From positions 1-17,168 of the forward strand of contig JAWARQ010000012.1 of assembly GCA_038893355.1 (NCBI GenBank): DNA of 17,168 bases, in the 5' to 3' direction. The notes under the pieces are model-generated. The model made no database searches and had not been told where the DNA came from. It worked only from the letters and a program-made list of their open reading frames with translations. Of the stretch, positions 1,693 through 17,168 are shown one piece after another. Source of the DNA: Sulfolobaceae archaeon. Its GTDB lineage: Archaea > Thermoproteota > Thermoprotei_A > Sulfolobales > Sulfolobaceae. Both the position numbers and the translations under genes were made by a program. Position 1 is the first letter of the stretch; every line of letters begins with the position of its first letter.

Positions 1693-2748
1693 TTATGATA
1701 TCTTCATCACAGCACGACCAAGATACTTAGCTTTCTCTAGCTCTTCAAACAAAGTGTTAATTTCACTTTCACTAAATCCTATTACCCTACTTACATGAGA
1801 CTTAACTCTGCCATCAACTGCTAACGAGAACAAGTCCTCAAATTCATTAGTTACTCCGACTATTGATGGTATTACCTTAATAAACCCTAGAATTGAAGCT
1901 AGTGGAGTTATAGGTATTGGTCCTTCATTTTCTGCTGGAATTCCTACTACTATTAAAGCCCCAGGTGGTCTTAATAACCTTAAGCCTAGTTCATAACCCT
2001 TTATCCTAGGAGTGAAGACTAATGATGCATAAACACCGCCTAACCTTTCTTTTACGAATTTTTCGGCTTCTCCCGCATCTACTACGTAATCTGCACCTAG
2101 CTTTTCAACAAATCTTAATCTTTCTTGCCCTATATCAATTCCTACAACTCTGTAGCCAAAAGCCTTAGCTATTTGAACTGCATAATGCCCTAAACCACCA
2201 GCAGCACCTATTATAGCTACAGTCTTACCTGCAGGCAGTCTTACTTCAGTAATAAGTTTTCTTACAGCACCATAAGCCGTTATTCCTCCACACATCATTG
2301 GTGCTACTTCAGTATCTGGTAGGTCTTTAGGTATCCTCGGTGCTGCCATTTCATGAATAATAGCATATTCCGCATACGTTCCATCTACGTTAACTGATGT
2401 ATATTTTGCATTAGAGCACCAGTGCGGATATCCTAATAGACATAGTTCACACTGACCGCACCAATAATTCATCCATGGTACACCAACTCTGTCACCTTTT
2501 CTAAGTCTAGAAACTCCAGGGCCGACTTCTTCAACTATTCCAATCCCTTCGTGACCTAATACCTTAGTATTTGTTAGATCCATAACTTGCCTTACACTAC
2601 TCCAATCTCCTTTCCACTGGTGTAAATCCGTATGACATATTCCAGTAACGCTTAATCTTACTAGAACTTGCCCAAAACCTGGTGTAGGTTTAGGAACCTC
2701 CTCCTTCACTAACGGTTTACCATACTCTTTTATCCTTAATGCCTTCAT
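1693..2748 (-). CDS. Zn-dependent alcohol dehydrogenase (MDR, AdhP-like), NAD(H)-type
   Basis: Catalytic Zn ligands in GICHTD, GHEG and MMCGG. Structural Zn site CGQCELC...C. Rossmann GAAGGLG followed by GIDIG (Asp implies NAD). Confidence 0.93.
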   Translation of the reverse strand: MKALRIKEYGKPLVKEEVPKPTPGFGQVLVRLSVTGICHTDLHQWKGDWSSVRQVMDLTNTKVLGHEGIGIVEEVGPGVSRLRKGDRVGVPWMNYWCGQCELCLLGYPHWCSNAKYTSVNVDGTYAEYAIIHEMAAPRIPKDLPDTEVAPMMCGGITAYGAVRKLITEVRLPAGKTVAIIGAAGGLGHYAVQIAKAFGYRVVGIDIGQERLRFVEKLGADYVVDAGEAEKFVKERLGGVYASLVFTPRIKGYELGLRLLRPPGALIVVGIPAENEGPIPITPLASILGFIKVIPSIVGVTNEFEDLFSLAVDGRVKSHVSRVIGFSESEINTLFEELEKAKYLGRAVMKIS

Positions 2749-2770
2749 TATAATATTTTTAGGTTATATA

Positions 2771-3005: not shown

Positions 3006-4439
3006 CTAAATAAACAACTCTTTATATTTTTCTGTAATAGTTTTAACTAGCTCATCACTAGGTTTAACTTCGATTGGGAATTGATTTCTGATAAGTTTAT
3101 CAAAAGGTTTTACAGCGTATATAATTGCACGCGATGATACATACTCGCTTATAAATTCTCTCCTTTCTGCCATTGGATCTAATGGTGTACTCCATACGTT
3201 TTTTATTACTTCTATAGATCTTATTGGATCAGATCTAGTACACATTGCCCATATAACTTGATTTATATCTGTTGGATCTATGTCATCATCAACTATAATA
3301 ACATATCTACCACCATATGCACTTAATGGACTTGTTGCTACGATGTGTCCTACCGTAGTTGCATGGCCTGCTGAAATTTGTTTTATAGATACAATTATAA
3401 ATGCCCTACCAAATCCTGCTTCATGAACCCATACTCCTTTAATTCCAGGGATTCCAATTCTCTCTAACATATTCCAAATCATTGCGGCACGAATAGGGCA
3501 TCTAAAGTAAGAATAGTCATAAGGCGGAATGCTAGGTGCTGTTCCTAAAAGAATTGGATTTTCTCTATAATATACTCTTTCAACTTCAATAATAGGGCTT
3601 TTCATCTTACCTCCTGCATAATAACCCATAAATTCACCGAAAGGTCCTTCATCTATTGTTTCTCCAGTAATATATCCTTCAATCGCAATTTCACTTTCAG
3701 CTGGGATAGGTAAGTCTGTGAGTTCTCCCTTAATTACTTTAAATCTCTTTTTAATTACAGCACCTGCAAAATTATATTCAGATACTCCATAGGGTACTTC
3801 CATTCCTGCAAATATGAAAAGTGAAAGGGGTGGTCCAAATGATATGGCTATCGGTGCTTTAATTCCCTTTTTAAGATAATTCTCTATATGAATTCTACCA
3901 TGATGTCCTGCATCTATGAATATTGCTAACCTTCTTCTATCTACTAGCATTACTCTATAAGCTCCAACGTTTATCCAATCTGAATCTGGATCTTTAGTAA
4001 TTACAGCATCCGCAGTTCCAATATATCTTCCACCATCTAACTCATGCCACTTCGGTGCTGGGAATTTAAGAAGATTTACATTCTCACCCCTATCAACATT
4101 CTCCATTACTGGAGAATCGTTAACTATTATAGGATCGTAATTCTTATATTCTCTACTTGCATAGTCTAATCTCTGCTTTAAAATTTTGACTAATTGAATG
4201 TCATTGACTTTATCAGGAATCTCTAACGCGAGCCCAACTCTTATTGCATCTAACAATGCGCCAGTTAGTAGTCTATATCCTTTTGGATAATCCTTTATCT
4301 CATCAAATAATAATGTATATTTCTTCTTTTTAGCATTTAAATCGGTTATTGCACCAATCTCTAAGTTCCAATCAGCTCCTCTAATTTCCCTTAAAAGACC
4401 TAACTTCCTAACCTCTTCAATAAATTTTCTAATTTCCAT
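3006..4439 (-). CDS. UbiD-family (prFMN-dependent) (hetero)aromatic acid decarboxylase
   Basis: Motifs ADWNLEIGAI, DGGRYIGT, NVGAYR (catalytic Arg), EGPFGEFMGYY (catalytic Glu pair) and VDDDIDP..WA..TR..P. Length 477 aa. Confidence 0.93.
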   Translation of the reverse strand: MEIRKFIEEVRKLGLLREIRGADWNLEIGAITDLNAKKKKYTLLFDEIKDYPKGYRLLTGALLDAIRVGLALEIPDKVNDIQLVKILKQRLDYASREYKNYDPIIVNDSPVMENVDRGENVNLLKFPAPKWHELDGGRYIGTADAVITKDPDSDWINVGAYRVMLVDRRRLAIFIDAGHHGRIHIENYLKKGIKAPIAISFGPPLSLFIFAGMEVPYGVSEYNFAGAVIKKRFKVIKGELTDLPIPAESEIAIEGYITGETIDEGPFGEFMGYYAGGKMKSPIIEVERVYYRENPILLGTAPSIPPYDYSYFRCPIRAAMIWNMLERIGIPGIKGVWVHEAGFGRAFIIVSIKQISAGHATTVGHIVATSPLSAYGGRYVIIVDDDIDPTDINQVIWAMCTRSDPIRSIEVIKNVWSTPLDPMAERREFISEYVSSRAIIYAVKPFDKLIRNQFPIEVKPSDELVKTITEKYKELFI

Positions 4440-4528: not shown

Positions 4529-5068
4529 TTAAATTGGAAAATAAAGGTTATATGAGGGATAGTTAGGGGTGTCCAAGTATATAATCCTTTTATATAGTTT
4601 CATTTCGTTACCACCGCTATAGATTCGTATGACATCTTCCCTCTTCCCAGATATTAAGTTAAAAGTTCCTTTTATCATTTCATCACCTTCTATTCTAAGT
4701 AGTATAAAACTGCTATTTACATGAATTTCTGAACCTCTCCTTTCTATTATTCTTACATTTCCAATAATTCTTCTAGTAAATGTCTTAGCATAATTGTACG
4801 CCCAACCATATTCAGATTTTAATCTTTGTATATATAGTCTCCACTTGTTTTTATCTGCACTAAATAAAAATTTTTCTTTGGAAAAATTTAATTTTTTATT
4901 TTGAGTAATTTCTCCTACAATGACGAAATACTCAAAATTATCATCTAGCAACTCTAGCCATTTTTCATAGTCTTCTTCATTTAATAACTCAACCTCTTTA
5001 TATACGAAGTTTAATATCTTAAAATACAACTCAACCTCTTCCTTTAATTCACTGTTCACTACTCTCAC
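4529..5068 (-). CDS. Aromatic ring-hydroxylating dioxygenase beta (small) subunit
   Basis: Pattern FVYKEVELL...YEKWLELL, TRRIIGNV, V.SSF...R, SGKREDVIR and L.KRIIYLD. It starts 3 nt after the alpha-subunit stop. An alternative GTG start lies at 5059 behind a GGTGA. Confidence 0.9.
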   Translation of the reverse strand: MRVVNSELKEEVELYFKILNFVYKEVELLNEEDYEKWLELLDDNFEYFVIVGEITQNKKLNFSKEKFLFSADKNKWRLYIQRLKSEYGWAYNYAKTFTRRIIGNVRIIERRGSEIHVNSSFILLRIEGDEMIKGTFNLISGKREDVIRIYSGGNEMKLYKRIIYLDTPNYPSYNLYFPI

Positions 5069-5071
5069 CCC

Positions 5072-6397
5072 TTAGTGTATCATTTCCATAACCCATCTTT
5101 TCCAAAAAGTCCTTTGACATTCTTCATGAAATTGAGTTGGTCTTACTATTCCAGGGCCTTTCCAATCTTTAATAACTGGCAAATCTTTTCCGCCTCCCTT
5201 CAATGCTGTAAAGGCAAAGTTTGCAAAATATCCTCCAGCAACCTTCGTTATACCCCTCCATATAGCTGTATCATCCATCTCTGCAGCCCCAGAAGGTCCG
5301 AAATGGGATACAGTAATCTCATAGACTCTTTTTGCAGTTTCATTATCTACTTCTTTTGGAACTATAACCCATGTCCATACTTCAGTCCTATTTTCACTTA
5401 TAGGTTGCCAGACCCGTAATAATGAAACTGGTGCTCTAGGTTTTACTGGGCCTGGATAATCAGTAGAATCTGCGGCTATGAACCCTGAAAAATTAGGAAA
5501 GATTGTAAAGACTGTATGCGAAACTTTCCTTAAAATTTCAAATCTCTCATCATAATTATTTTCAATATTCTTTAGTTTAAAACCAAAATAACCAGGAATA
5601 TTTTCACTAGGTACTAGTCTAAATCCGAAAGCACCTACTGGTTTGCCATTAACATCTTTTAAATCAGCTATTGAAATCTCATTCTTTCCTGGCGTTAAAT
5701 ACCCGAACCTAGATAATGGGCTTGCAAGACCATATTCTACTACACTCTTATGAGTCATAATAGTGTGCAATCTGTCTTCAGAGAAATTCTCTGCACCTAT
5801 TTTCCAATTAAAATCTGCAATAAATCTTAATGGTGAGTTTACTGGCCTCATTCCACCAGTTAATTTAAATATTACATCAAGATAGTACTTTGCTTCACCT
5901 AAATATTCGTCTAAAGAGATAGAAGGAGCTTCGCTACCGAATATTAAATTTTCATATTGCTGGATTTTTATCTCTATTAATCCCCATTTTTCAATATCAA
6001 GATCCTTGAAGACAATTTCACGCAATGGCATTCCTATCAATTTACCCACATTATTATACGTCCATCCGTGATATGGACATGTAAAAGTTTTTGCATTACC
6101 TTTTTCAGCGTTACATAATATTGCTCCTCTATGTCTACAACTGTTAAAGAAACCTCTTATTTTTCCGTCATCTCCCCTCACAATAATAAATGGGTCTGGG
6201 CCAATATATCTAACGATATAGTCTCCTTCCCTTGGAATTTCATCAGAAAATCCTAAGAATATCCAAGATTTTGAAAAGATTCTTTCAAGTTCAAGGTTAA
6301 ATATCTCCGTATCATTAATCACCTTCAAAGGAATTTCATAGTTCTCATCAATAAAAAATGACTTATACAAACTTTCCAAATGTTTTCTGATACTCAT
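5072..6397 (-). CDS. Rieske non-heme iron ring-hydroxylating oxygenase alpha subunit
   Basis: Rieske ligands CRHRG...CPYHGW. Mononuclear Fe site NWKIGAENFSEDRLHTIMTH (bridging Asp plus two His) and GPSGAAEMDD (Asp ligand). Also ELERIF..SW and TIFPNFS. Confidence 0.95.
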   Translation of the reverse strand: MSIRKHLESLYKSFFIDENYEIPLKVINDTEIFNLELERIFSKSWIFLGFSDEIPREGDYIVRYIGPDPFIIVRGDDGKIRGFFNSCRHRGAILCNAEKGNAKTFTCPYHGWTYNNVGKLIGMPLREIVFKDLDIEKWGLIEIKIQQYENLIFGSEAPSISLDEYLGEAKYYLDVIFKLTGGMRPVNSPLRFIADFNWKIGAENFSEDRLHTIMTHKSVVEYGLASPLSRFGYLTPGKNEISIADLKDVNGKPVGAFGFRLVPSENIPGYFGFKLKNIENNYDERFEILRKVSHTVFTIFPNFSGFIAADSTDYPGPVKPRAPVSLLRVWQPISENRTEVWTWVIVPKEVDNETAKRVYEITVSHFGPSGAAEMDDTAIWRGITKVAGGYFANFAFTALKGGGKDLPVIKDWKGPGIVRPTQFHEECQRTFWKRWVMEMIH

Positions 6398-6427
6398 TAC
6401 AATCTCTTTAAAATCTCTTAATATTAG

Positions 6428-6441
6428 TATTTAAGTTTTTC
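6428..6441 (-). promoter_or_regulatory. Putative BRE-TATA for the oxygenase alpha/beta genes
   Basis: The minus strand reads GAAAAA-CTTAAATA, about 31 nt before ATG 6397. Confidence 0.4.
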
Positions 6442-6506
6442 TATCATTATTATTTTAATAAATCAAATTAATTCTATATTATATTTATATGCATTATAAT
6501 ATTTGC

Positions 6507-7601
6507 TTAAGGTTTTATTAAACTCCGTAAGATCTCTCCCTTTTTCAAATTCTCTATCGCTTGATTTATATCCTCTAACTTATACTTACTAGATATTAAT
6601 TTAGCGGGATCATATCTCTTAGACCTTACCATTGCAAATAATTTTGGCATATCTATCCTAGGTCTTCCACCATGTGCGGTTAATATTCTTATTCCATTCC
6701 TTAAAAGGTGTGCTATCTTTAAGGGTATTTCTTGATTAGCAGGAGGAATTCCAACCTGAATTACTTTACCTCCTATTCTTACTAATTCTGTTGCCATTCT
6801 AATAGTTTCTAATGTACCAGCAACTTCAAATACAATATCTACTCCTCCATCACTAATTTCTTTAACCCTTTCTATAGTATTCCCTTCCTTAGCATTTATA
6901 ATATGAGTCGCACCTAATTCTAATGCCTTTTTTAATTTCCAATTATAGATGTCTATAACTATAATCTCCCCCGCCCCTATTGCCGATAACATCTGGACTA
7001 TCGATAAGCCTACTCCTCCAGCACCAATAACTGCTGTACTCTCTCCTGCTTTAACTTTAGCAGTATTCACTACTGCACCATACGCAGTTAATCCAGCACA
7101 ACCTAATATTGCTAGTTCTTCATTCGGATTAAGGTCGTTAGGGATTTTATTAACTGCATTTTCATGGACTATAACATATTCAGCAAATCCTCCTCCCATA
7201 AACATTCTTAACTCTCTCCCATCCCTGAATCTTAATCTACTTGTACCATCTAACATAACGCCCTTTAATCTATTCTTTATAAAATTCTCACATAAGTTCT
7301 CGAGTCCTGCTATGCAATTTCTACATTTTCCACATGGTTGAATGAATGAGACAACTACTATATCACCTTCCCTAACTCTAGAAACGTTTTTACCTACCTT
7401 AATTACTTCTCCTAATATTTCATGTCCTGCAATAACTGGTGGTTCTATTGGTGTAAATCCTAAAAATACGTTAAGATCGGAATGACATAGACCACAAGCT
7501 TTTACTTTTATCATAACTTCATTTTCTTTAGGATTTTCTATATCTATATCATCACGTATCTCTAAAGGCTGATTATATCTAAATAGTACTGCAGCCCTAA
7601 T
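6507..7601 (-). CDS. Zn-dependent dehydrogenase (MDR), paralog of the Sulfolobales succinate-semialdehyde reductase type; probable start ATT at 7601
   Basis: Motifs GLCHSD, AGHE, CGKCRNC...C, LGCAG and GAGGVG. The frame upstream of ATG 7514 reads [29 protein letters not shown], the normal MDR N-terminus, and is bounded by an in-frame TGA at 7608-7610. Confidence 0.9.
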
Positions 7602-7603
7602 AC

Positions 7604-8938
7604 CTATTCACCCATTAGAGCCTTTTCTTTACTTATTGCACCTTTGGTCTCTGGAGACAGTAAAGTTCCTATAAGTTCAATTATTCCAGCTACTATAATC
7701 GCTACTGTCATTACTAATGGAAATTTTGGGAAACCGCCAACAGCATTAAGTATTAAGGTAACTATTGTTGGTGATGAACCTCCTATTGCAAATCCAATAT
7801 TCCATGTAAGTGCTACACCAGTACCTCTTACTTGTGTTGGATATGTTTCATTTAGATACGTCATTACAATCCCACCTCCAAAATCTGCAATGAATGATAT
7901 TGTGAAGGCTAATAGTATTATTAGATTTAGCTCATTTATCGTTAAACCTCCTAAGATTAAAAATAGTGGACTCATAATTATTACTATAATGCTACCTATT
8001 AATGACATGGTTTTCCTACCTATTAGCTGTGAGAGAGCACCACCTATAACTGGGCCTATCAGCATGCCTAAGGATGCAAATATCATCACTATTCCAACTG
8101 ATGGTCTAGGCAAACTATTCACGTTGCTTAAAAATGTAGGAAAAAGCCCTTGAGTTAAATAATACATCAATGCCCATCCTACCGTAACGATTAGAGCAAT
8201 GAAGAATTTCCTTCTCAATTCAATATTTTTAAATATTTCTCTCAATGGCGATTTTACTAACTGCCCTCTTTGTTTAACCTTAGACCATACTTCAGATTCT
8301 GGCGTTATATAACTAACATAAAACAGAATTATCAAAGGAAATAAACCACTAAAGAACATAACTCTCCACCCTAAATCTAAGTAAGAATTTCCTGGGAACC
8401 AAATTGTAGTAGCGTAAAACCATAATGATGCAATAAGATAAGCAGCACCTGCAGCTGCAAATCCTATACCTCCTACCCAACCTCTATGTCTTTCTGGCAC
8501 AGATTCTGGCCCTATAGTATGACTTCCAGCGGTCACTCCTCCTATAAAGAAGCCTTGAATTAATCTAAGCAATATCAGTAATGTGGGTGCTAATATTCCT
8601 GCAGTATAGAAAGTCGGAAGTGCACCTTGTAGTGATGTAGTTATAACCAATCCAATTATACCATATATTATAGCCCTCTTTCTACCAACTTTATCAGCAA
8701 TCTTTGTACCAAAATAACCGGCACCGAATGGTCTCATTATGAACGATACGAGGAAGCCTGCATATGTTGCAGCTATTGATAATAGGGGAACTTGTGATGG
8801 GAAAAAGAGGGATGAAATGTAGGGTGTAACTAGAAGTATTATGAATAAATCGTATAGGTCAAAGGTCCATGTAAAGAAACTCGCTAATATCCATTTTACA
8901 TGCCTTGATGTTAGCTTATCTTCGCTCAATATACTCAC
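7604..8938 (-). CDS. MFS transporter (metabolite:H+ symporter-like)
   Basis: Motifs WTFDLYD, MRPFGA..FG..ADKVGRK, LRLIQGFFIGG, ESVPERHRG, GWRVMF and ETYPTQVRGTG. GTG start. Confidence 0.92.
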   Translation of the reverse strand: MSILSEDKLTSRHVKWILASFFTWTFDLYDLFIILLVTPYISSLFFPSQVPLLSIAATYAGFLVSFIMRPFGAGYFGTKIADKVGRKRAIIYGIIGLVITTSLQGALPTFYTAGILAPTLLILLRLIQGFFIGGVTAGSHTIGPESVPERHRGWVGGIGFAAAGAAYLIASLWFYATTIWFPGNSYLDLGWRVMFFSGLFPLIILFYVSYITPESEVWSKVKQRGQLVKSPLREIFKNIELRRKFFIALIVTVGWALMYYLTQGLFPTFLSNVNSLPRPSVGIVMIFASLGMLIGPVIGGALSQLIGRKTMSLIGSIIVIIMSPLFLILGGLTINELNLIILLAFTISFIADFGGGIVMTYLNETYPTQVRGTGVALTWNIGFAIGGSSPTIVTLILNAVGGFPKFPLVMTVAIIVAGIIELIGTLLSPETKGAISKEKALMGE

Positions 8939-8954
8939 CGTAGTTGATTTAAAG

Positions 8955-8980
8955 TTGTAACTTAATAAATGTTACTACAA
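8955..8980 (-). promoter_or_regulatory. TATA box of the MFS-dehydrogenase operon, flanked by an inverted repeat (candidate operator)
   Basis: Minus-strand TTTATTAA (8962-8969) lies about 24 nt before GTG 8938, enclosed by GTAAC-N9-GTTAC (8957-8975). Confidence 0.55.
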
Positions 8981-9105
8981 TTTAATAACTTCGGAGTATA
9001 TTAAATAACGTTTTAATTTTATTCTAGATATAAACTACATCAAATCAATTAGATTTTGTGGAAGGTATAATCCACTAAGAATTTGTTCTTATAAAGAACT
9101 AAAAT

Positions 9106-9753
9106 CTAGGAATTGTTTATTAGCTTTTTTATAAAATAACCTATTATCTTATTCTCAGCTCTCCTTAGGTGGTATATTAGTGTAGATTGTTTAATCCCTA
9201 TTATCTTTGCTAATTCTTCTGCCTTAATTCTTCTTGGATAATCAAAATATCCAAGGTCATACGCTAGACTTAGTATTTTTAATTCCCTATCACTAAGGTC
9301 GTTTATTGGGATTTCATCAGTAACATCGACTCTTTCTATTTGAGCGAATTCTTTTATTTCATTTAATAACTTATTCAATTTATATTCATAAGCCAATAAA
9401 TTCCAGATTTCCCCTCCATTAAACTTCATTGTATTCAAGACTATACCATTATTCCTTACTATAACGGACAGTATCGAATTATCGTAATCTCTAGCCAAAT
9501 CTACTATAATTTTATTTTTATAATTAAAAATATTATATATATTTTTTATTTTCTCTTCTGATTTAAGTTTTACTATAGTCCTATAACCTTTCTGGGAGAC
9601 AATGGCAGTAACCCTCAAAATGTTTTTCTCAGGATATGGAATTAAACCTATTATCTTCACTAAATCTTCCTCTAAATAATACTTACTCCAACAGTTTTCA
9701 TGAATTAGGTAAATATTTACCAACTTTATGGGACTTTTATTCACTCTTAGCAT
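9106..9753 (-). CDS. Transcription regulator with C-terminal bacterio-opsin-activator-type HTH (HTH_10)
   Basis: C-terminal LSDRELKILSLAYDLGYFDYPRRIKAEELAKIIGIKQSTLIYHLRRAENKI and N-terminal HENCWS, both typical of Sulfolobales members. Confidence 0.92.
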   Translation of the reverse strand: MLRVNKSPIKLVNIYLIHENCWSKYYLEEDLVKIIGLIPYPEKNILRVTAIVSQKGYRTIVKLKSEEKIKNIYNIFNYKNKIIVDLARDYDNSILSVIVRNNGIVLNTMKFNGGEIWNLLAYEYKLNKLLNEIKEFAQIERVDVTDEIPINDLSDRELKILSLAYDLGYFDYPRRIKAEELAKIIGIKQSTLIYHLRRAENKIIGYFIKKLINNS

Positions 9754-9902
9754 AGAATACTATAGAATTCGTAAAATAATAAATATTCATTACGAATAAT
9801 CACCTTAACATGATTAAAGCTTTCAAAAAGAGGTTTATCTTAATTTTAGTATATTTAAGGTGAGGAAAAAATATATAAACGTATATCGTGAAGATTAGCA
9901 TA
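9754..9902. promoter_or_regulatory. Divergent promoter region between the regulator and the acyl-CoA ligase
   Basis: Minus-strand TTTATTAT (9776-9783) lies about 23 nt before ATG 9753. Plus-strand GGAAAAAA-TATATAAA (TATA 9872-9879) lies about 24 nt before ATG 9903. Inverted pair TCACCTTAA (9800-9808) / TTAAGGTGA (9855-9863). Confidence 0.65.
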
Positions 9903-11591
9903 ATGGTAGAGGTAATAAGAGAGAAGAAGATAGTAGTAGAACCTAATTTAAAGAATTATGAAGAGGTACGAAGAAATTTTGATTGGAATATTGTGAGAAA
10001 GAGCCTAAATTATTTTGGGAAAGTTAATGCTGCAGAAGTTGCAATTCATAAAAAGGATTTAACGACTGCCAGTAAATATGGGTTAATATGGATTAGCGAA
10101 AAGGGTGAGATAAGGAAATATACTTTTTCAGATCTGGAAAAGAAAGGTTCTATATTTAGTAATGTTCTCAAGGAGGCTGGAATTGGCTCAGGGGATAGAG
10201 TTGTATTAATGTCTAAAAGGGTTCCAGCACTTTATTTTAGTTTATTAGGAATAGCTATGGCTGGTGGTGTAATAGTACCGATCTTTTCCACGTTTGGTGA
10301 GGATGCGATAAGGTATAGGGTCGAGAATAGTGGTGCGAGATTTGCAATAGTTCATGAGTCATTAGCTAATAAGTTCAAAAATATTAGTGGAATTAAATTA
10401 CTTAAAATCTCTGATGAGGGTATTCAAAATGAAAGTAGTGTAGCTAATATAAAATATGAGAAAAGGTCTATTGATGATCCATTTCTGATCCTCTATACAT
10501 CTGGTACTACAGGTAGACCTAAAGGTATATGGCATTCTCAAGATATATTAACTTTCTATTATATATCTGGAAAATACCACTTTGATATGCACCCTCAAGA
10601 TATATTCTGGCATACCGGTGATCCTGCATGGGTAGCAGGCTTTGCTGGAGTATGGACAGCGTGGATTAATGATATACCTATAGTATCTTATGAAGGAAGA
10701 TTTAATGCAGAGGCATGGTATTCGATAATTCAAGAAATTAAGGTCTCAATAATCTCTACTGCACCAACTGCATTAAGACTTCTTAAAAAAGAGGGCTTAC
10801 AGTTAGCTAGGAGATACGACTTATCATCCGTTAGATTTATTCATGCTGGAGGAGAGTATGTAGATCCAGATACAGTCAAATTTGGAATTGAATTATTTGG
10901 AATACCAGTACATGACGGGTATGGCCAGACAGAGACAGCTACTTACGTTATTGCTAACTTCATATCTATGCCAATTAAGGTTGGTTCGATGGGTAAACCA
11001 TTACCTGGAGTTGAGGCATTAATTGTTGACGAAAACGGAAACCCATTGCCACCAAACACTAGAGGAATCTTAGCATTTAAACCTGATTTTCCTGCAATGG
11101 CTAGGGGTATATGGGGAGATGAAGAAAGATGGAAGAGAAACTTTAAAAACGGATATTATTTAACTGGAGATTTTGCGTTTATGGACGAAGATGGGTATTT
11201 CTGGTATTTAGGTAGAGTCGATGATGTAATTAAAGTATCTGGATATAGAGTAAGTCCTATAGAAATAGAAAGTGTACTATCAACACATCCTGCAGTAGCG
11301 GAAGCCGCAGTTATTGGAGTAGAGGATCCAATTAGAGGGAACAAAATAAAAGCGTATATAGTTCTTAAGAAAGAATACGAACCTTCAGAGAGTGTTGTAA
11401 AGAGTATACAAGAATTTATAAAGGAAAAACTCGCTGCACATATGGTACCTAAAGAGATAGAGTTCGTTAATGAACTTCCTCATACGTTAAGTGGGAAAGT
11501 AATGAGGAGAGTTTTGAGGGCAATTGAGTCTAAAGCGGATGTGGGAGATATATCAACACTAGAAAACCCTGAAGTAGTAAAATCTAAATAA
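9903..11591 (+). CDS. AMP-forming acyl-CoA synthetase (AcsA-like scaffold, probably for a larger or heteroaromatic acid)
   Basis: Motifs YTSGTTGRPKG, DGYGQTET, YLTGD, GRVDDVIKVSGYR and LPHTLSGKVMRR. Start is placed at ATG 9903 rather than GTG 9888 because the TATA box position puts GTG 9888 upstream of the expected TSS. Confidence 0.92.
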   Translation: MVEVIREKKIVVEPNLKNYEEVRRNFDWNIVRKSLNYFGKVNAAEVAIHKKDLTTASKYGLIWISEKGEIRKYTFSDLEKKGSIFSNVLKEAGIGSGDRVVLMSKRVPALYFSLLGIAMAGGVIVPIFSTFGEDAIRYRVENSGARFAIVHESLANKFKNISGIKLLKISDEGIQNESSVANIKYEKRSIDDPFLILYTSGTTGRPKGIWHSQDILTFYYISGKYHFDMHPQDIFWHTGDPAWVAGFAGVWTAWINDIPIVSYEGRFNAEAWYSIIQEIKVSIISTAPTALRLLKKEGLQLARRYDLSSVRFIHAGGEYVDPDTVKFGIELFGIPVHDGYGQTETATYVIANFISMPIKVGSMGKPLPGVEALIVDENGNPLPPNTRGILAFKPDFPAMARGIWGDEERWKRNFKNGYYLTGDFAFMDEDGYFWYLGRVDDVIKVSGYRVSPIEIESVLSTHPAVAEAAVIGVEDPIRGNKIKAYIVLKKEYEPSESVVKSIQEFIKEKLAAHMVPKEIEFVNELPHTLSGKVMRRVLRAIESKADVGDISTLENPEVVKSK

Positions 11592-11614
11592 CATTATTAA
11601 TTTATTTTGTAAAC

Positions 11615-11667
11615 ATTTTAAAAGTCTTTTTAGCCTTTTATGCATTAGATTTTAAAAGTCTTTTTAG
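11615..11667 (+). repeat. Perfect 19-bp direct repeat ATTTTAAAAGTCTTTTTAG, two copies
   Basis: Copies at 11615-11633 and 11649-11667. The second TTTTAAAA lies about 26 nt before GTG 11683. Confidence 0.85.
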
Positions 11668-11682
11668 TAACTTCTTACTTGT

Positions 11683-12456
11683 GTGAGCATCATGATCAGA
11701 GTCGAAATAGATAAGGAGAATAAAATAGGAAAAATATTAATAGATAGACAAGAAAAGATGAATGCGATAACAGTATCTATGAGAAGAGAAATTGGAGAAA
11801 AATTAATTGAGTTTAATAAAAACCCTGATGTGAAAGTCGTGATAATTAAAGGAATAGGTGGAAAGGCATTCAGCTCTGGCGGAGATATAAGCGAATTCCT
11901 CTCTCTAACTCCAGATATTCTAATTGACTGGGGTGAAGATATTTCTATGTCAGAAAGAGTGTGGAAACCAGTAATAGCTGCAATTGATGGTTATGCCTTT
12001 GGTGCAGGATTTGAGCTTGCATTATCTTGTGATATCAGAATAGCAACTCCAAGAAGTGAATTTAGTTTCCCCGAAATAAGGTTAGGAATGGTTCCGGCAA
12101 GTGGCGGAATTACTAGGATAATAAAAACCTTAGGATTATCCAGAGCTACATATCTCTTAATGTTGGGGAAGAGAATAGATGCACAGACTGCATTACAATG
12201 GGGAATAGTGCATGAAGTAGTAGAACCAGAAAAATTAGATGAAAGGGCCTATGAAATAGCAAAAGAGCTCTCTAATCTATCATCGTTAGCATTAAAAGCA
12301 TTGAAGAAGATTCTTCACGAAATAGCTGATGCCCCCTTATATGTAGGGTTTGATATTGAGAGAAAAACCTTCGGCTTACTTAGATACTCTAATGATTTTA
12401 AGGAGGGTGTAGAAGCATTTCTAAATAAACGTAAACCAAAATTTGATGGGAGGTGA
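11683..12456 (+). CDS. Enoyl-CoA hydratase/isomerase (crotonase) family protein, HmfE (2-oxoglutaroyl-CoA hydrolase)-like
   Basis: FSSGGDI oxyanion loop, KPVIAAIDGYAFGAGFELALSCDIR, PEIRLG and DFKEGVEAFLNKRKPKF. HmfE likeness rests on recalled sequence and on adjacency to the Mo enzyme. Confidence 0.9.
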   Translation: MSIMIRVEIDKENKIGKILIDRQEKMNAITVSMRREIGEKLIEFNKNPDVKVVIIKGIGGKAFSSGGDISEFLSLTPDILIDWGEDISMSERVWKPVIAAIDGYAFGAGFELALSCDIRIATPRSEFSFPEIRLGMVPASGGITRIIKTLGLSRATYLLMLGKRIDAQTALQWGIVHEVVEPEKLDERAYEIAKELSNLSSLALKALKKILHEIADAPLYVGFDIERKTFGLLRYSNDFKEGVEAFLNKRKPKFDGR

Positions 12457-14750
12457 ATTTAATATTTAAAGAAGGTTTTAGGTTTGTATCTGGAAAAGGA
12501 AGATATATCGATGATGTAATTAGAGAATATAAGAATGTTCTTCATGCAAGTATAGTTAGATCTGCTTATGCTCATGCTAAAATAAATTCCATAGACGTAA
12601 GAGATGCGGAAAGATTGAGTGGAGTTATTAAAGTTTTAACGTTTAGAGACATAAAACCATTTTTAGATCCTTTTCCTCTTTCATTAGATATAAATTTAGA
12701 ATATTATCCTATAGCTAAGGATAAGGCAGTATATTATGGTGAACCAATAGCTGTAATCATTGCAAAAGATGAATATATAGCCGAAGATGCTAAGGAATTA
12801 GTTCAAATAGACTACGAACCTTTAAAACCGATAATCTCAATCAGAGACGCTATAAATTCTCCTCCAATACACTCAAATCTTTCATCGAATATAGTTTTGA
12901 ATAAAATACTTACCTATGGAAAATTCGAAGAGAGTATTAAAAAGGCCGAGGTAGTCACTGAAACGAGAGTTAAGTTTCCACGATACTCATGTGCTCCTCT
13001 AGAGACATATGAAGTTCTAGCGAAGTTTGATGGAGAAGAGTACGAGATATATTCAAATTTTCAAGGACCTTTTACTATTCATTACTTGTTAACTAAAGCA
13101 TTAAAAAGTAAAGTAGTTTTAAGAGGTCCACGCGATATAGGCGGGTCTTTTGGAATAAAGAGTGCAATCTACCCATACATGGCGTTAATAGCAGTTGCAA
13201 GTAGAATAGTAAATAAACCAGTAAAATGGATCGAAACAAGAAATGAGCATCTAATAGCTAGTTCTGCAGGTGCAGAAAGAGAGTCTTTAGTTAGAGTTTA
13301 CGGAAATAGGCAAGGTAAAATTTATGCCTTAGAGATTGAAATGACAGATAACCTTGGTGCTTATCCTAGACCTCCAGAGCCGGGTAACCTGCTAAGAAAT
13401 CATGGAAATATTACTGGTGCTTATGAAATAGAAGGACTAAAATTAAATTATAGGGCTGTACTAACAAATACTTTACCTACTGGGCTTAATAGAGGTTATG
13501 GTGGACCTCACTTATATCTTGCACTAGAAACTGCAATAGATGATTTTGCAGAAGAAGTAGGGATCGATCCATTAGAGGTAAGGTTTAAAAATGTGATAAA
13601 GGGAGAGGAATATGAGACATTAACTGGAGGTAAGTATCATGGTTTTAGTTGTTATAAAGTAGTTAAAGAAATGAAGGAAATTTATGAAAAATTAATTAAA
13701 GAATCAAAAAAATATAAAAATAGAGGAATTGGGGTTTCATTAATAGTAGAACCTTCTGGAACAAATATTGGTTACCTAGATTTGGCTCGAGTAAGCAAGA
13801 ATTTCTTACCTAAATCTTCTGCACTTGATGTGGTTTTGGTTCAAATAGATCCATATGCAAAAGTAAAAGTAATAATAAATGGAACTAATGAGGGTCAAGG
13901 CCATGAATCCGTAATTTCTAAAATTGTATCAGAGAGGCTAGGTATTAGTGAAGATGATGTAGAAGTTATTTACTCTGTAGATACAGTAAGGCCATGGAGT
14001 ATAACTTCTGGAACGTATTCTAGTAGATTTTCCCCAATAATAGTTAAAGCATTAAATAACGCGTTAGATAAGCTTGAGGACACTTTACTTACTTACGCAT
14101 CAGAGCTACTTAAGGTTCAGAAATCACAGTTAAAGATTGAAAATGGCAAGATACTGAAAGTTGGTAGTGATAAATCAATATCTATAAAGAATTTAGTAGG
14201 TATCTTCTATTGGGATCCTGCAAAGCTGAAGGGTATAGAGGACGGATTAACTGCAATAGGCTATTATCAATCACCCTACGCGGATGATCTAGAAGAGAAT
14301 AGAATAAATTCATCTATAGCATATGGCTGTCTTGGTCATATAGTTGAATTAGAGTTAGACGAAGAGACAAAAATTCCTAGAATACTTAATTACTTCATTA
14401 TCCACGATTCAGGGAAGATATTAAACGAAGAATTAGCTAAAGGTCAATTATTAGGTTCAACGTTTCATGGAATCGAAGTAGCCCTCTATGCTTCATTAGA
14501 GTATAATGATGAAGGGATTCCAATTTCACAGACCTTTTCAGAGTATGGTATATTATCTACGATGGAAAGTCCAAGAAGTATAAGTATAGTTCATATAGTA
14601 ACTGATCCGAATTATATAGCTGGATTAGGAGAAGGAGGTACAATGGCTGCACCAGCAGCTATAGTTAATGCTATTAAAAGGATATTAGGGGTGAAAGAAG
14701 TTAAGATACCAGTATACAATTTTATAAATGAGTTGTATAAATTGTATTAG
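12453..14750 (+). CDS. Xanthine-oxidase-family molybdoenzyme large subunit, HmfA (2-furoyl-CoA dehydrogenase)-like
   Basis: Motifs GKGRYIDD, VRSAYAHAKI, IGGSFGIK, PTGLNRGYGGP, GQGH, SGTYSSRF and GLGEGG (catalytic Glu). GTGA overlap with the upstream stop. Confidence 0.92.
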   Translation: MNLIFKEGFRFVSGKGRYIDDVIREYKNVLHASIVRSAYAHAKINSIDVRDAERLSGVIKVLTFRDIKPFLDPFPLSLDINLEYYPIAKDKAVYYGEPIAVIIAKDEYIAEDAKELVQIDYEPLKPIISIRDAINSPPIHSNLSSNIVLNKILTYGKFEESIKKAEVVTETRVKFPRYSCAPLETYEVLAKFDGEEYEIYSNFQGPFTIHYLLTKALKSKVVLRGPRDIGGSFGIKSAIYPYMALIAVASRIVNKPVKWIETRNEHLIASSAGAERESLVRVYGNRQGKIYALEIEMTDNLGAYPRPPEPGNLLRNHGNITGAYEIEGLKLNYRAVLTNTLPTGLNRGYGGPHLYLALETAIDDFAEEVGIDPLEVRFKNVIKGEEYETLTGGKYHGFSCYKVVKEMKEIYEKLIKESKKYKNRGIGVSLIVEPSGTNIGYLDLARVSKNFLPKSSALDVVLVQIDPYAKVKVIINGTNEGQGHESVISKIVSERLGISEDDVEVIYSVDTVRPWSITSGTYSSRFSPIIVKALNNALDKLEDTLLTYASELLKVQKSQLKIENGKILKVGSDKSISIKNLVGIFYWDPAKLKGIEDGLTAIGYYQSPYADDLEENRINSSIAYGCLGHIVELELDEETKIPRILNYFIIHDSGKILNEELAKGQLLGSTFHGIEVALYASLEYNDEGIPISQTFSEYGILSTMESPRSISIVHIVTDPNYIAGLGEGGTMAAPAAIVNAIKRILGVKEVKIPVYNFINELYKLY

Positions 14751-15099
14751 TTTCGTTTAAGCTAATCTAGCTTCTCATACTCATAGAGGCGAGAGAATAA
14801 TATCTTTCGGTCAAATTTCGAGTTAGCATTTTTTACGGAAAACTCTAGGGCTTAATAGTTTTTAAGAGAACATGATCAGAACCAAAACTTTTTCTATCTT
14901 AAATACCTCAAATTTTATCTCTATCTTAAAGTAAAAGATAAACATTAACAGAACTATTTATGAGGATTATAGAGTGTAATGATGCCTCTCACCAAAAATT
15001 GCTCATGCTGGATATTGTGATTAATTTGTGGAGGTCTTTAGGAAGATAGATGTTAGATCTTTAATTCTTAATTTTCTTTTTATAGGAATTGGAGCTAAA

Positions 15100-15405
15100 G
15101 GGTGGAAAACCTCGCCTTTTTGAGGAGAAATTAATAGCCCCTTATATTTGCATACTCTTTTTTGAAACATTTTTCAGCGATTTTAGCGACGTTCCTCTTC
15201 AGCTCGATGGAACTTTGGGAGGGGCACCTATAGTCTCTTAAGGGGCTAGACGTTATGGATGAAAGTCACTCTCCTTTCAGGTGGGAGTGGTTCTCTGCCC
15301 TACTCGACTGCCCACTAAATGAGAGATGCAAACCCGAATCGATGGTGGGAACGATGAACTCTCTGGGAGGGAACTTTTACCTCTATGAGGTGGTGAGCAA
15401 GTCAG
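15100..15405 (+). mobile_element. Degenerate non-autonomous IS200/IS605-family remnant(s), including a tnpB 3'/right end
   Basis: GC-richer patch in AT-rich DNA. AAAACCTCGCCTTTTTGAGG resembles a decayed subterminal hairpin, and there is a hairpin CACTCTCC-TTTCA-GGTGGGAGTG. GGTTCTCTGCCC..CGACTGCCC..AAATGAGAGATG.AAACCCGAATCGATG...GAGCAAGTCAG resembles recalled Sulfolobales tnpB ends finishing GAGGAAGTCAG. The left boundary is uncertain. Confidence 0.65.
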
Positions 15406-15425
15406 TTTTTATTGCTCCCTTATTT
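15282..15425 (+). ncRNA. Possible orphan omegaRNA (reRNA) scaffold plus flanking guide
   Basis: Inferred only from resemblance to tnpB right-end sequence. There is no expression evidence and the terminal hairpin is degenerate. Confidence 0.3.
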
Positions 15426-15745
15426 ATTAAATTCTTATCGTCACTTACCAGTGGAATATTATATTTTCTGCTCAAAAATAAATAAGTAGCATCATAATAA
15501 GTTAAATTTTCATTAACTGCAATCTCTAATACTTCCTTGGATAATTTCACATTTTCTACCTTAATGAACTTTAAGATGTTTGAAAAGTCAGACAGTAAGT
15601 CAGTCCTTTTAATCTTCCAAAGAAAATTTCCGATCTCGTAATATACTAAATCAGCAGTTATACACTCTTTAAAAAGGTCTATTGATCTATCTTTCAGTCT
15701 TTGAATTAAATTGATAATCGCTGACGTATCTAAAACATACTTCAC
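15383..15745 (-). CDS. vapC: PIN-domain toxin VapC
   Basis: PIN acidic motifs YVLDTSA, YEIGN, LTYYDATY and LVSDD. GTGA overlap with the antitoxin stop. Confidence 0.93.
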   Translation of the reverse strand: MKYVLDTSAIINLIQRLKDRSIDLFKECITADLVYYEIGNFLWKIKRTDLLSDFSNILKFIKVENVKLSKEVLEIAVNENLTYYDATYLFLSRKYNIPLVSDDKNLINKGAIKTDLLTTS

Positions 15746-15966
15746 CTTTCTCTGTCCTCCCTAATTAGCCTTACAACATCCTCTACGGATAATTTTAACT
15801 CCTCGGCAATCCTCTTAGAGGACTTTCTTGCCTCTTCTTCTTCCCTCTTCTCTATCTCTTCCTCTAGTGATTTTCTCAATACTTCCGATATATTAATACC
15901 GTACTTTCTCGCTTTTTCAAATACTTCTTTTCTTACTTTAGTTGAGACTGTAACCCATTCTGTCAT
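15742..15966 (-). CDS. vapB: Antitoxin VapB (RHH / CcdA-like)
   Basis: 74 aa with VTVSTKVRKEVFEKARKYGINISEVLRKSLEEEI and C-terminal IREDRER. Directly upstream of the PIN gene. Confidence 0.9.
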   Translation of the reverse strand: MTEWVTVSTKVRKEVFEKARKYGINISEVLRKSLEEEIEKREEEEARKSSKRIAEELKLSVEDVVRLIREDRER

Positions 15967-15983
15967 ATATATTACTTAATATC

Positions 15984-16007
15984 TTGTAGTAATAAATTTT
16001 ACTACAA
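15984..16007. promoter_or_regulatory. Palindromic operator over the vapBC TATA box
   Basis: Perfect inverted repeat TTGTAGTAA-N6-TTACTACAA. Minus-strand TTTATTA lies about 25 nt before ATG 15966. Confidence 0.75.
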
Positions 16008-16097
16008 CGTTTAGCATAAAGGCTATTCAATATGCACTGAATTCTTTTTTTACGTTAATAGAAATCTTTTTATATTCATTTATTATCAACTAAATTT

Positions 16098-16620
16098 GTG
16101 GAGAGACTTTTAAGGCCTAAGGAGGCTTGCCAACTGTTAGGCATTTCATACTCAACACTCCTAAGGTGAATTAGGGAAGGCAAAATAAGGGCTGTAATGA
16201 CCGAGGGCGGAAAGTATAGGATACCATACAGCGAGGTTAAGAAGTATTTGGAGAGGAGGGAGGAGACTAGGGCAGTAATTTACGCTAGAGTCTCATCAGC
16301 AGACAAAAAGGAGGACTTGGAGAAACAAATAAATTATTTAACAAACTACGCAACAGCAAAGGGTTACAAAATAGTAGAAGTATTAAAAGACATTGCTAGT
16401 GGGTTAAACGCACAAAGGAAAGGGTTACTAAAGCTGTTCAAACTAGTAGAGGGGAGGAGTGTAGACGTCGTGTTAATAACACACAAGGACAGGCTAACAC
16501 GTTTAGACTTTGAGTACTCAGAGGAGTTCTTTTCAGCCATCGGAGTTAGGATAGAGGTAGTCTTTGGAGAGGAACCGAAAGACACAACACAAGAACTCGT
16601 CGAAGACTTAATCTCAATCA
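16098..16620 (+). pseudogene. tnpA: IS607-family serine transposase TnpA, nonsense mutation and 3' truncation
   Basis: From GTG 16098 it reads MERLLRPKEACQLLGISYSTLLR*IREGKI (MerR-like HTH, TGA at 16167-16169 where Trp is expected), then YARVSS, KDRLTR and ELVEDLISI, cut by the IS1 end at 16621. Confidence 0.9.
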
Positions 16621-17168
16621 GATAGTGTTGTCATTAAGCTACAAATTCTGGGATTAACATTCTCTCCCATAAGACTAAAGCTATAGAATACTTCATCACC
16701 TCCAAACTCCTATTGACAGCCTTCGTGAACCTCTTGAACCTAACAAGCCTATCCCTCAACAAGGCCTCATTAGGGTTAACAAACTTGACCAAAGTATGGT
16801 CCCTCAAGGAAAAGTATAAATTATAATCATCACTAACCCACCCTCTGGGGAATATTGCAAAACTTCCTTGAAAGCCCCTTATTCCTATAAACAACAGAAA
16901 ATAAAGACCAAGGGGAGTATAAACATAGTAAGTAAAGACTAACTGTAAAATGCCTTAACATTCCTAAACAAGTAAGCCCAAAACCTCATCAAAAACCTTA
17001 CCCTTAACCAAATCCTTAGCCTTCCTTAATGAGCTCCTCGTGCTTCTGCCTACCATAGCGTTTAATCCAAGTGAAAACAGTACCCAAAGGTAAGTTAAGT
17101 ACCCTAGAAATTGCCCTCATACTCATACCATCAGAATACATCCTTAAAGCTTCTTCCCTCAACTTCCT
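16621..17168 (-). mobile_element. IS1-family element (ISC1173-like) with decayed transposase; continues beyond the window
   Basis: Terminus GATAGTGTTGTCATTAAG is similar to the IS1-type GGTAGTG end. Minus-strand fragments in different frames: EALRMYSDGMSMRAISRVLNLPLGTVFTWIKR (HTH), KGKVFDE, WVSDDYNLYF and NPNE..LRDRLVRFKRFTKAVNRS. Frameshifts and stops lie around 16900-17030. Confidence 0.85.

Follow-up and report, generated by a model that had tools for sequence, protein, structure and literature searches.

Gene content and organization of the locus

We analyzed a 17,168-nucleotide stretch of DNA from a Sulfolobaceae archaeon (GenBank assembly GCA_038893355.1, contig JAWARQ010000012.1, positions 1 to 17,168 of the forward strand). 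This whole stretch, referred to below as the window, corresponds to contig C12 in a genome of 1.40 Mb that is 84% complete, and its G+C content is 27-39%. An initial annotation had proposed that positions 9903-14750 encode an hmfD/E/A-like module, that is, a candidate archaeal version of the Trudgill pathway, in which 2-furoate is converted to 2-oxoglutarate. The list of open reading frames (ORFs), together with Pfam and NCBIfam searches of the window proteins, placed three genes there on the plus strand: an AMP-forming acyl-CoA ligase (567 aa), a crotonase-fold protein (257 aa), and the large subunit of a molybdenum (Mo) hydroxylase (765 aa). All three ORFs are full length and have no internal stops (coordinates in Table 1).

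The ligase ORF opens at 9888, and the ATG at 9903 is its probable start; an A/T-rich, TATA-like element (AAATATATAAAC) lies ~24-35 nt upstream of this codon. As the initial annotation had stated, the ligase gene precedes the other two, and the crotonase gene overlaps the Mo-subunit gene: the TGA stop codon of the former overlaps the GTG of the latter ORF (GGGAGGTGAATT), with a GGAGGTGA element at the junction. The overlap indicates coupled translation of these two genes, or a gap between them of no more than 5 nt. A scan for bacterial promoters and terminators returned 27 promoter-like sites against 27.8 expected; such a scan, built for bacteria, is not applicable to archaea.

The Mo subunit belongs to a sister lineage of bacterial HmfA

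The large subunit has the three-domain architecture of the xanthine dehydrogenase (XDH)/CoxL family, which HmfA (KEGG K16877) shares (Pfam). None of the 13 NCBIfam models that it matched reached its cut-off. The best of them, glyceraldehyde dehydrogenase alpha (NF041018), scored 374 bits against a cut-off of 790, and we rejected this assignment together with that of 4-hydroxybenzoyl-CoA reductase alpha (TIGR03194; 273 against 995 bits). A form I or form II CO dehydrogenase CoxL was also rejected, both on its TIGR02416 score (276 against 991 bits) and on a loop that reads TGLNRGYGGP, not AYxCSFR (form I) or AYRGAGR (form II). The best matches in the PDB were CoxL (267 bits) and quinoline oxidoreductase (253 bits), with 4-hydroxybenzoyl-CoA reductase at 195 bits.

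A search of 5.8 billion proteins recovered orthologues with 64-74% identity in Sulfurisphaera, Saccharolobus, and Sulfolobus, as well as hundreds of further relatives at 38-44%. At least 21 relatives (21 of the 120 matches listed) carry the automatic IMG/JGI name '2-furoyl-CoA dehydrogenase large subunit', and named orthologues of the module proteins occur in cultured Sulfolobus, Saccharolobus, and Sulfurisphaera species. When the Mo subunit was compared by tblastn with 72,556 plasmids, the top match was a protein of Geobacillus kaustophilus pHTA426 (39.5% identity, 541 bits). Haloarchaeal proteins matched at 36-39% identity, and HmfA-type proteins from Dinoroseobacter, Cupriavidus, Paraburkholderia, and others at ~35% and 440-485 bits, below which the scores fell to 313 bits or less. 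The proteins of Dinoroseobacter shibae pDSHI01 (485 bits) and Cupriavidus pinatubonensis p2 (464 bits) served as proxies for HmfA of Cupriavidus basilensis HMF14; both are 34.8% identical to the Mo subunit, which is under the criterion of at least 45% identity to C. basilensis HmfA in a published survey (PMC8091172).

Two trees were constructed, one of 53 rows (LG+G4, with the SH-like approximate likelihood ratio test, SH-aLRT) and one of 28 rows (LG+C20+F+G4, with ultrafast bootstrap, UFBoot, and SH-aLRT). The outgroups were five plasmid-borne CoxL-type proteins, including a form I CoxL, and three large subunits from the window's own genome. The two trees agree in topology. Clade A (support 93/92) contains both HmfA proteins, Bacillales sequences, a Ktedonobacteraceae protein, Halorussus, and a deltaproteobacterial metagenome-assembled genome, whereas clade B (100/100) is purely crenarchaeal. 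Together they form a joint clade (100/99 in the 28-row tree, SH-aLRT 100 in the 53-row tree) that excludes the sampled outgroups. Clade B in turn splits into B1 (100/100), comprising the window protein and its Sulfolobaceae orthologues, and B2 (100/100), with members from Pyrobaculum, Vulcanisaeta, and Thermocladium and with Sulfolobaceae paralogues. The phylogeny that the initial annotation had put forward as a check, here with the proxies in place of C. basilensis HmfA, thus unites the Mo subunit with HmfA in one clade; since clade B is sister to clade A, however, the window protein represents a sister lineage of bacterial HmfA and is not nested within it.

The initial annotation had further quoted sequence motifs as characteristic of HmfA in the Mo subunit and of HmfE in the crotonase, and each is literally present in the translations. 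In the Mo subunit they read NFQGPFTIH, RPPEPGNLLRNHGNITGAY, PTGLNRGYGGP, EPSGTNIGY, and WSITSGTYSSRF. Alignment bore out their diagnostic value, as all five are common to HmfA and absent in the eight outgroup rows. Clades A and B share N.QGP where the outgroups have (S/T)TQ.., TGL(N/I/V)RG(Y/F)GG where they have AYRGAGR or AYRCSFR, and YSSRF where they have YGSRS; for R.PEP...R.HGN..GAY and EPS..N.GY the outgroups have no counterpart. The motif GPF[ST][IL]H is likewise common to the window protein and HmfA and absent in the eight outgroup rows. We then defined 49 signature columns as those at least 90% conserved in clade A, the same in both HmfA proteins, and found in no more than one of the eight outgroup rows. 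The window protein keeps 27 of these 49, B2 proteins keep 28-36, and the outgroups 1-8. The loop that follows the Mo-binding Gln has the sequence GPFTIH in B1, GPFSIH or GPFSLH in HmfA, GPFTLH in the pHTA426 protein, and GPML..Y in B2. Glu727, the catalytic Glu of the GxGE motif, is invariant in a 15-sequence alignment, whose invariant residues the Mo subunit retains; in the alignment with the outgroups it is kept in all rows but a truncated Priestia row.

Among 40 relatives, B2 was found in 12 and B1 in 4, and B2 is present in all four genomes that carry a B1 orthologue. We also noted that a large subunit from the window's own genome (G000:C2:136.5-143.5 kb, 34-36% identical) is sister to the whole clade of HmfA and crenarchaeal proteins (97/93), and that a ligase resembling acetyl-CoA synthetase (ACS), 35-36% identical to that of the window, lies ~1.7 kb from it. 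This suggests that ligases and Mo hydroxylases are paired outside the Hmf-type clade as well.

The crotonase groups with HmfE-type proteins

The crotonase motifs quoted in the initial annotation occur as FSSGGDISEFLSLTP and LRYSNDFKEGVEAFLNKRKPKFDG. The protein shares 44% identity with the crotonase of the pHTA426 cluster and 38-40% with the HmfE proteins of D. shibae and C. pinatubonensis; these levels resemble those of its PDB scores against ordinary hydratases. Its best PDB matches include the 3-hydroxypropionyl-CoA dehydratase of Metallosphaera sedula (5zai, E 7e-49). In a tree of 47 rows (one of which, 'MoLadj_Actinomyc', of 1074 aa and with a branch length of 4.4, is a wrong ORF and was disregarded), the crotonase fell, in keeping with its proposed HmfE type, into a group of 41 rows (SH-aLRT 90) that excludes the four other crotonases of the genome. 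The group consists of a crenarchaeal clade (97), a bacterial HmfE clade (95), and two further clades, with the relations among them unresolved. The crenarchaeal clade mirrors the B1/B2 split of the Mo subunits, and one of the two further clades includes a SAR324 crotonase whose gene adjoins that of a Mo subunit from the joint clade.

Members of the group share the signature S(S/A)GGD, against AGAD in ordinary crotonases, and an LR pair before the C-terminal DF.EG. Both catalytic Glu residues are kept in all of them, the window protein included. Among 120 crotonase homologues listed, 12 bear the JGI name '2-oxoglutaroyl-CoA hydrolase', one of them an 81% identical S. islandicus protein. We regard the window crotonase as a candidate ring-opening hydratase or thioester hydrolase of the HmfE-like group.

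The CoA ligase resembles acetyl-CoA synthetases

The initial annotation had treated the ligase as HmfD-like. It shares only 27-28% identity with HmfD and 29% with the ligase of pHTA426, and its closest relatives are acetyl-CoA synthetases, so that we rejected it as an HmfD orthologue. The best NCBIfam match was PRK04319, at 596 bits under a cut-off of 729, and the best PDB match was 9g79 (E 5e-136), the AcsA of Bacillus subtilis (PMC11910552). Orthologues at least 51% identical, among the matches listed, belong to Sulfolobales where they are named, the others being unnamed. None of the 120 ligase homologues listed is named as a furoate ligase.

An alignment to acetyl-CoA synthetases showed that the ACS motif DTWWQTET reads DGYGQTET in the window ligase. 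The YG pair occurs in 17 of 19 ligase orthologues, and WW in 99 of the 101 other relatives. Counted from the alignment, the first W is residue 414 of the Salmonella enterica enzyme, a residue that limits the acyl pocket to acetate. The ligase is an acetyl-CoA synthetase derivative that is specific to Sulfolobales and whose acyl pocket, to judge from these residues, is altered. The change from WW to YG fits an enzyme retargeted to a larger acid, in which case it would be a non-orthologous replacement of HmfD; given such a pocket, the ligase may still act as HmfD does.

Ligase, crotonase, and Mo-subunit genes stay linked across the clade

We examined 80 loci around relatives of the Mo subunit with 35-42% identity (clades A and B2) and scored neighbours lying within 10 kb of the Mo-subunit gene (tblastn, E ≤1e-6, at least 50% query coverage; neighbours cut off by contig ends count as misses). 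A ligase was found at 68 of the 80 loci, a crotonase at 71, and both at 66. CoxM was present at 78 and CoxS at 76; further down came CoxG (45), XdhC (32), a BenE-type carrier (20), a carrier of the hmf-type major facilitator superfamily (MFS; 14), and UbiD (6), and a Rieske oxygenase alpha subunit was found at 0 of 80. Linkage of ligase, crotonase, and Mo subunit is hence a trait of the whole clade, in bacteria and archaea alike. The ligases of these loci are mostly of another kind than that of the window: 85 of 88 ligase matches are of the HmfD/pHTA426 type and three of the window type, one at a Sulfolobaceae locus and two at a Pyrobaculum locus.

Carriers of the BenE and HmfT1 types have been reported with proteobacterial hmf clusters (PMC8091172). 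BenE-type carriers also occur, beside PaaI/hotdog thioesterases, in the clade A clusters of a Halorussus vallis plasmid (L040) and of Priestia megaterium pNCT2_4 (L041). The Halorussus vallis cluster has one thioesterase, two ligases, and no annotated crotonase, which suggests that the hydrolytic partner may be interchangeable.

A conserved island surrounds the module in Sulfolobaceae

Four other Sulfolobaceae genomes carry regulator, ligase, crotonase, and Mo subunit in the same order, at 64-81% protein identity, and this recurrence argues that the arrangement is not due to chance. The wider island, in the window, adds an MFS symporter, a UbiD-family decarboxylase, and a Rieske oxygenase alpha subunit to this core (Table 1). 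The complete set is also present in genomes G017 and G019. In G009 the core, symporter, and Rieske alpha subunit are present, and the stretch ends before the expected place of UbiD. In G006 the core, symporter, and UbiD are present, and a Rieske alpha subunit was not found in the stretch. The G006 Mo-subunit gene is split after residue ~543 (G006:C1:54000-73900, L031, ~7190-10650), with a 328-aa ORF for an IS1-family transposase (Pfam DDE_Tnp_IS1, E 1e-11) between its two parts. The ligase and crotonase there are intact by sequence, and the module is probably inactive in that genome. The Mo-subunit orthologues of the three other genomes are intact.

Table 1. Features of the window, with the evidence for each assignment.
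Feature	Position	Strand	Evidence or remark
MFS carrier, aromatic acid/H+ symporter type	3/21-1241	+	TIGR00895, 135 bits, below cut-off; cut at left window edge
Zn-dependent alcohol dehydrogenase (ADH) 1, ADH1	1693..2748	-	Pfam ADH_N + ADH_zinc_N
UbiD-family decarboxylase (prenylated flavin mononucleotide, prFMN)	3006..4439	-	Pfam UbiD domains
Rieske non-haem-iron oxygenase beta	4529-5068	-	Pfam Ring_hydroxyl_B
Rieske non-haem-iron oxygenase alpha	5072-6397	-	Pfam Rieske + Ring_hydroxyl_A
Second Zn-ADH (ADH2)	6507-7514	-	Pfam ADH_N + ADH_zinc_N
MFS metabolite/H+ symporter, candidate acid importer	7604..8938	-	TIGR00883, 211 bits, below cut-off
HTH_10-type transcription regulator, divergent from ligase gene	9106..9753	-	Pfam HTH_10, E 4e-23
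AMP-forming acyl-CoA ligase	9888/9903..11591	+	Pfam AMP-binding + AMP-binding_C, E 5e-69
Crotonase-fold protein, HmfE-like group	11683..12456	+	Pfam ECH_1, E 2e-58
Mo hydroxylase (MCD) large subunit, lineage B1	12453..14750	+	Pfam Ald_Xan_dh_C + MoCoBD_1 + MoCoBD_2, E 1e-26 to 3e-60
VapB-like/PIN toxin-antitoxin pair	15383-15966	-	
IS607-type resolvase fragment, 142 aa	16197-16625	+	
Helix-turn-helix (HTH)-containing ORF running off window end	17016-17168	-	

Copies of the HTH_10 regulator, 54-62% identical, lie beside the ligase gene in 4/4 orthologous loci, a position that suggests a role in regulating the module. The MFS symporter is likewise kept in 4/4 loci, at 60-67% identity. It is 36-37% identical to the MFS carriers of the pHTA426 and C. 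pinatubonensis hmf clusters, against at most 33% to its own-genome paralogues, and HmfT1 of hmf clusters is reported to be of the same subfamily (PMC8091172).

UbiD copies 72-76% identical to that of the window occur in 3/4 orthologous loci. The best PDB match of the window UbiD, at 297 bits, was entry 7PDA, which is the phenazine-1-carboxylate decarboxylase PhdA (PMC10850782); the pyrrole-2-carboxylate decarboxylase HudA/PA0254 scored ~182-183 bits and HmfF (6h6v) 119 bits. With this difference, and with only 28% identity to the UbiD of the D. shibae hmf cluster, we rejected an orthologue of HmfF, the 2,5-furandicarboxylic acid decarboxylase. The Rieske alpha subunit, present in 3/4 orthologous loci, best matched a naphthalene dioxygenase of Rhodococcus (2b1x, E 1e-86) and a phthalate dioxygenase. 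From its conserved position, UbiD may be functionally linked to the module. The UbiD and Rieske genes, which are specific to B1, could belong to an upper pathway that handles a larger (hetero)aromatic acid, or else to another pathway, unrelated to the module, in the same island.

The Zn-ADH genes of the orthologous islands are only 28-34% identical, so their orthology is not shown, and a role of these enzymes in oxidizing an alcohol or aldehyde upstream of the acid is speculative. ADH2 aligns to full-length ADH models (NCBIfam) only from profile position ~29-31, and the gap to the next gene is just 90 bp; ~30 N-terminal residues may be lost, or a start that was not recognised may be used. At the left edge, the MFS carrier runs off the window, and the island may therefore extend further to the left. 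The right end, 14750-17168, consists of mobile-element debris.

Partner subunits are encoded elsewhere in the genome

The equivalents of HmfB and HmfC are CoxM and CoxS. We found neither CoxM nor CoxS in the window, nor in the ~20-kb stretches around the four B1 orthologues. The genome as assembled holds a single CoxM and a single CoxS, both on contig C4 and unlinked to the window, in the arrangement CoxM-CoxS-(MocA-type nucleotidyltransferase, opposite strand)-CoxG (G000:C4:145.3-147.7 kb; L036 7321-9651); there is no large subunit near this locus, although four genes for large subunits occur in the genome. CoxM and CoxS adjoin the large subunit in 4/4 B2 loci examined versus 0/4 orthologous B1 loci. 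Each of the four complete B1 genomes carries 3 CoxM and 8-9 large-subunit genes, with one CoxM more than 70 kb from any large-subunit match. This ratio indicates that shared partners and orphan large subunits are the norm in these genomes, and the missing hmfB and hmfC at the locus are thus no argument against function. The window Mo subunit may use the distal CoxM and CoxS.

Proteobacterial HmfA continues at its C terminus into a CoxG domain (Pfam COXG, E 2e-25 and 3e-25), and CoxG is a separate gene both on pHTA426 and in the window's genome. The window Mo subunit has no CoxG domain.

Comparison with known systems

Among the systems compared, furfural degradation is confirmed for D. shibae DFL12, and its HmfA shares 54% identity with the C. 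basilensis protein (PMC3223595); C. pinatubonensis JMP134, which has hmfABCDE only, is reported to grow on furoate (PMC8091172). G. kaustophilus HTA426 has been reported as a furfural degrader from unpublished data (cited in PMC3223595). The annotated regions of D. shibae pDSHI01 and C. pinatubonensis p2 show the canonical hmfABCDE order. The window resembles these bacterial clusters in its Mo subunit, which belongs to the same clade and shares the motifs, in the adjacent HmfE-type crotonase, and in a ligase within one operon-like unit; an MFS metabolite/H+ symporter lies nearby, and UbiD is in the neighbourhood, as in D. shibae. It differs in gene order (ligase-crotonase-Mo subunit as opposed to A-B-C-D-E), in the unlinked hmfB and hmfC equivalents, in a ligase that appears to be an ACS-type, non-orthologous replacement, in a regulator of HTH_10 type instead of LysR or AraC, in a UbiD that is PhdA-like and not HmfF-like, and in the extra Rieske oxygenase. 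The large subunit itself is shorter, as bacterial HmfA proteins measure 983-1015 aa with their fused CoxG domain (C. basilensis HmfA, 1015 aa; PMC8091172).

The hmf-like cluster of pHTA426 (UbiD, MFS, ligase, regulator, XdhC, MocA, Mo large subunit, CoxG, CoxM, CoxS, ligase, crotonase) holds the closest named relatives of the window large subunit and crotonase, and also an MFS carrier with 37% identity. It too has CoxG as a separate gene and a thermophile as host. Unlike the window, this bacterial, plasmid-borne cluster has CoxM, CoxS, and CoxG next to the large subunit, ligase of the HmfD type, and no Rieske oxygenase.

B2 is the sister lineage of B1 and shows the same motifs. Its Pyrobaculum loci contain an ACS-like ligase (34% identical to that of the window) and an HmfE-like crotonase (48-51%), and a further Sulfolobaceae B2 locus has a ligase 36% identical to the window's. 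By contrast, B2 large subunits are only 40-44% identical to that of the window, have CoxM and CoxS beside them and the GPML loop, and no UbiD or Rieske neighbours were seen at their loci. 4-Hydroxybenzoyl-CoA reductase alpha (HcrA, 1rm6, TIGR03194) is another XDH-family enzyme that acts on an aryl-CoA thioester; it is far more distant, judging by its PDB score, and catalyzes a reductive reaction in anaerobes.

Biochemical work has described a Mo-dependent thiophene-2-carbonyl-CoA monooxygenase. It hydroxylates C5 of the CoA thioester of a five-membered heteroaromatic 2-carboxylate, in a route that leads to 2-oxoglutarate. We know of no gene identified for this enzyme.

A proposed pathway and its alternatives

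The three-gene set is the archaeal sister of the bacterial furoic-acid genes, and hence probably degrades furoate or a similar ring acid. In the scheme that we propose, the acid would enter the cell, probably through the adjacent MFS symporter, and the ACS-derived ligase, with its putatively enlarged acyl pocket, would form the CoA thioester. The Mo large subunit would then hydroxylate the ring carbon next to the heteroatom with oxygen from water, in partnership with the flavin adenine dinucleotide (FAD) subunit CoxM, the 2Fe-2S subunit CoxS, and CoxG from the unlinked contig C4 locus. Finally, the translationally coupled HmfE-like crotonase would open or hydrolyze the product, which for furoate would yield 2-oxoglutarate. 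We infer the substrate, the order of these steps, the use of the distal CoxM and CoxS, and control by the HTH_10 protein. That the general chemistry is CoA activation, Mo-dependent ring hydroxylation, and opening or hydrolysis by the crotonase seems to us highly probable. On balance, we favor the view that positions 9903-14750 encode an Hmf-type 'lower pathway' whose substrate is an aromatic carboxylic acid, most likely one with a five-membered heteroaromatic ring, with 2-furoate as the leading candidate. Of the module first proposed, the Mo subunit, the crotonase, and the clade-wide linkage are retained; the ligase is not HmfD, and HmfB and HmfC are missing from the window.

Several observations weigh against an Hmf-type pathway for furoate. 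The Mo subunit stands beside the bacterial HmfA clade, not inside it, and shares only 35% identity with genuine HmfA. The ligase, as its sequence relationships indicate, is not orthologous to HmfD, and ligases of its type are only 3 of the 88 found beside clade members. The co-conserved UbiD is PhdA-like and not HmfF-like, and the Rieske oxygenase, lacking a counterpart in the 80 related loci, hints at a larger or different feedstock. The B2 paralogue keeps as many or more HmfA signature residues (28-36/49 versus 27/49), B1 and B2 probably act on different substrates, and the furoyl-CoA enzyme could be either of them; as far as signature residues can tell, B2 appears an equally good or better candidate than B1. 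We keep our estimate for furoate down for two of these reasons, namely the standing of B2 and the B1-specific UbiD and Rieske genes that point elsewhere. The identification of 2-furoate as the physiological substrate is accordingly a tentative one.

The same observations feed the most serious alternative, in which the chemistry is as proposed, the substrate is another acid (thiophene-2-carboxylate, pyrrole-2-carboxylate, or an N- or O-heterocyclic acid supplied by the neighbouring UbiD and Rieske enzymes), and B2 is the archaeal furoyl-CoA dehydrogenase. The coexistence of the B1 and B2 lineages in all four genomes with a B1 orthologue would fit a division of this kind, as would the greater number of clade A signature columns in B2, a UbiD nearest PhdA and HudA rather than HmfF, and a Rieske alpha subunit that is nearest to naphthalene and phthalate dioxygenases and accompanies the B1 lineage only. 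However, it is B1, not B2, whose loop agrees with that of HmfA and pHTA426, the neighbouring MFS carrier is closer to those of hmf-type clusters than to its own-genome paralogues, and nothing points positively to another substrate. We consider this alternative possible but rather unlikely. An extension of it, that Sulfolobaceae run two parallel Hmf-type pathways differing in heteroatom specificity, with B1, tied to a PhdA/HudA-like UbiD and a Rieske oxygenase, acting on thiophene-, pyrrole-, or fused-heterocycle-carbonyl-CoA and several orphan large subunits drawing on one shared CoxM/CoxS/CoxG module, is a long shot; if true, it would for the first time link a gene to an enzyme such as thiophene-2-carbonyl-CoA monooxygenase.

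It is very improbable, in our judgment, that the genes form no single pathway and that the large subunit is an oxidoreductase of aldehydes or other small molecules, like the glyceraldehyde oxidoreductase of Sulfolobales. The model for that enzyme is the best NCBIfam match of the large subunit, yet its score lies far under the cut-off, and the trees separate the large subunit from its own-genome paralogues at 100/99. Similarly, the crotonase matches 5zai and has both catalytic Glu residues of a normal hydratase, and the ligase resembles acetyl-CoA synthetase; against this stand the three-gene linkage in 66/80 loci and in all five B1 loci, the overlap of the crotonase and Mo-subunit genes, and the loss of the WW dyad of the acetate pocket from the ligase. 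A decaying, non-functional remnant, with an orphan large subunit on a contig end rich in mobile elements, is the least probable explanation of all. The window has no CoxM or CoxS, the three genes are followed immediately by a PIN/VapB pair and an IS607 resolvase fragment, and the G006 orthologue is interrupted by a transposase. Nevertheless, the three ORFs are complete, invariant residues including Glu727 are kept, intact orthologues exist in three other genomes, and orphan large subunits are the rule here, with 8-9 large subunits per 3 CoxM.

Relation to earlier work and significance

Automatic labels of the KEGG/IMG kind already name relatives of these proteins hmfA and hmfE. What is new here is the archaeal sister lineage, the replaced ligase, the unlinked and shared electron-transfer subunits, and the different context of the island. 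Two reviews of hmf genes deal with bacteria alone (PMC3223595, PMC8091172). In a body of literature that lacks most subscription journals, we found no paper on an archaeal furoate pathway and none that mentions both Sulfolobus and furoyl-CoA. Matches for 2-furoyl-CoA together with archaea concerned sponges, Burkholderia, and Pseudomonas; S. acidocaldarius appeared with furfural or furoic acid only in incidental mention; and among the matches listed for Sulfolobus or Saccharolobus with furfural or 5-hydroxymethylfurfural (HMF), none dealt with furan catabolism by these archaea. Nor did this literature yield anything on the gene combination of the island.

In hot acid, where these archaea live, sugars readily give rise to furfural and related furans. 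If our preferred reading of an Hmf-type pathway is true, a pathway so far described only in bacteria would extend to archaea, heat- and acid-stable enzymes would become available for detoxifying biomass hydrolysates, and the Sulfolobaceae would offer an example of many Mo large subunits being served by a single FAD/FeS module.

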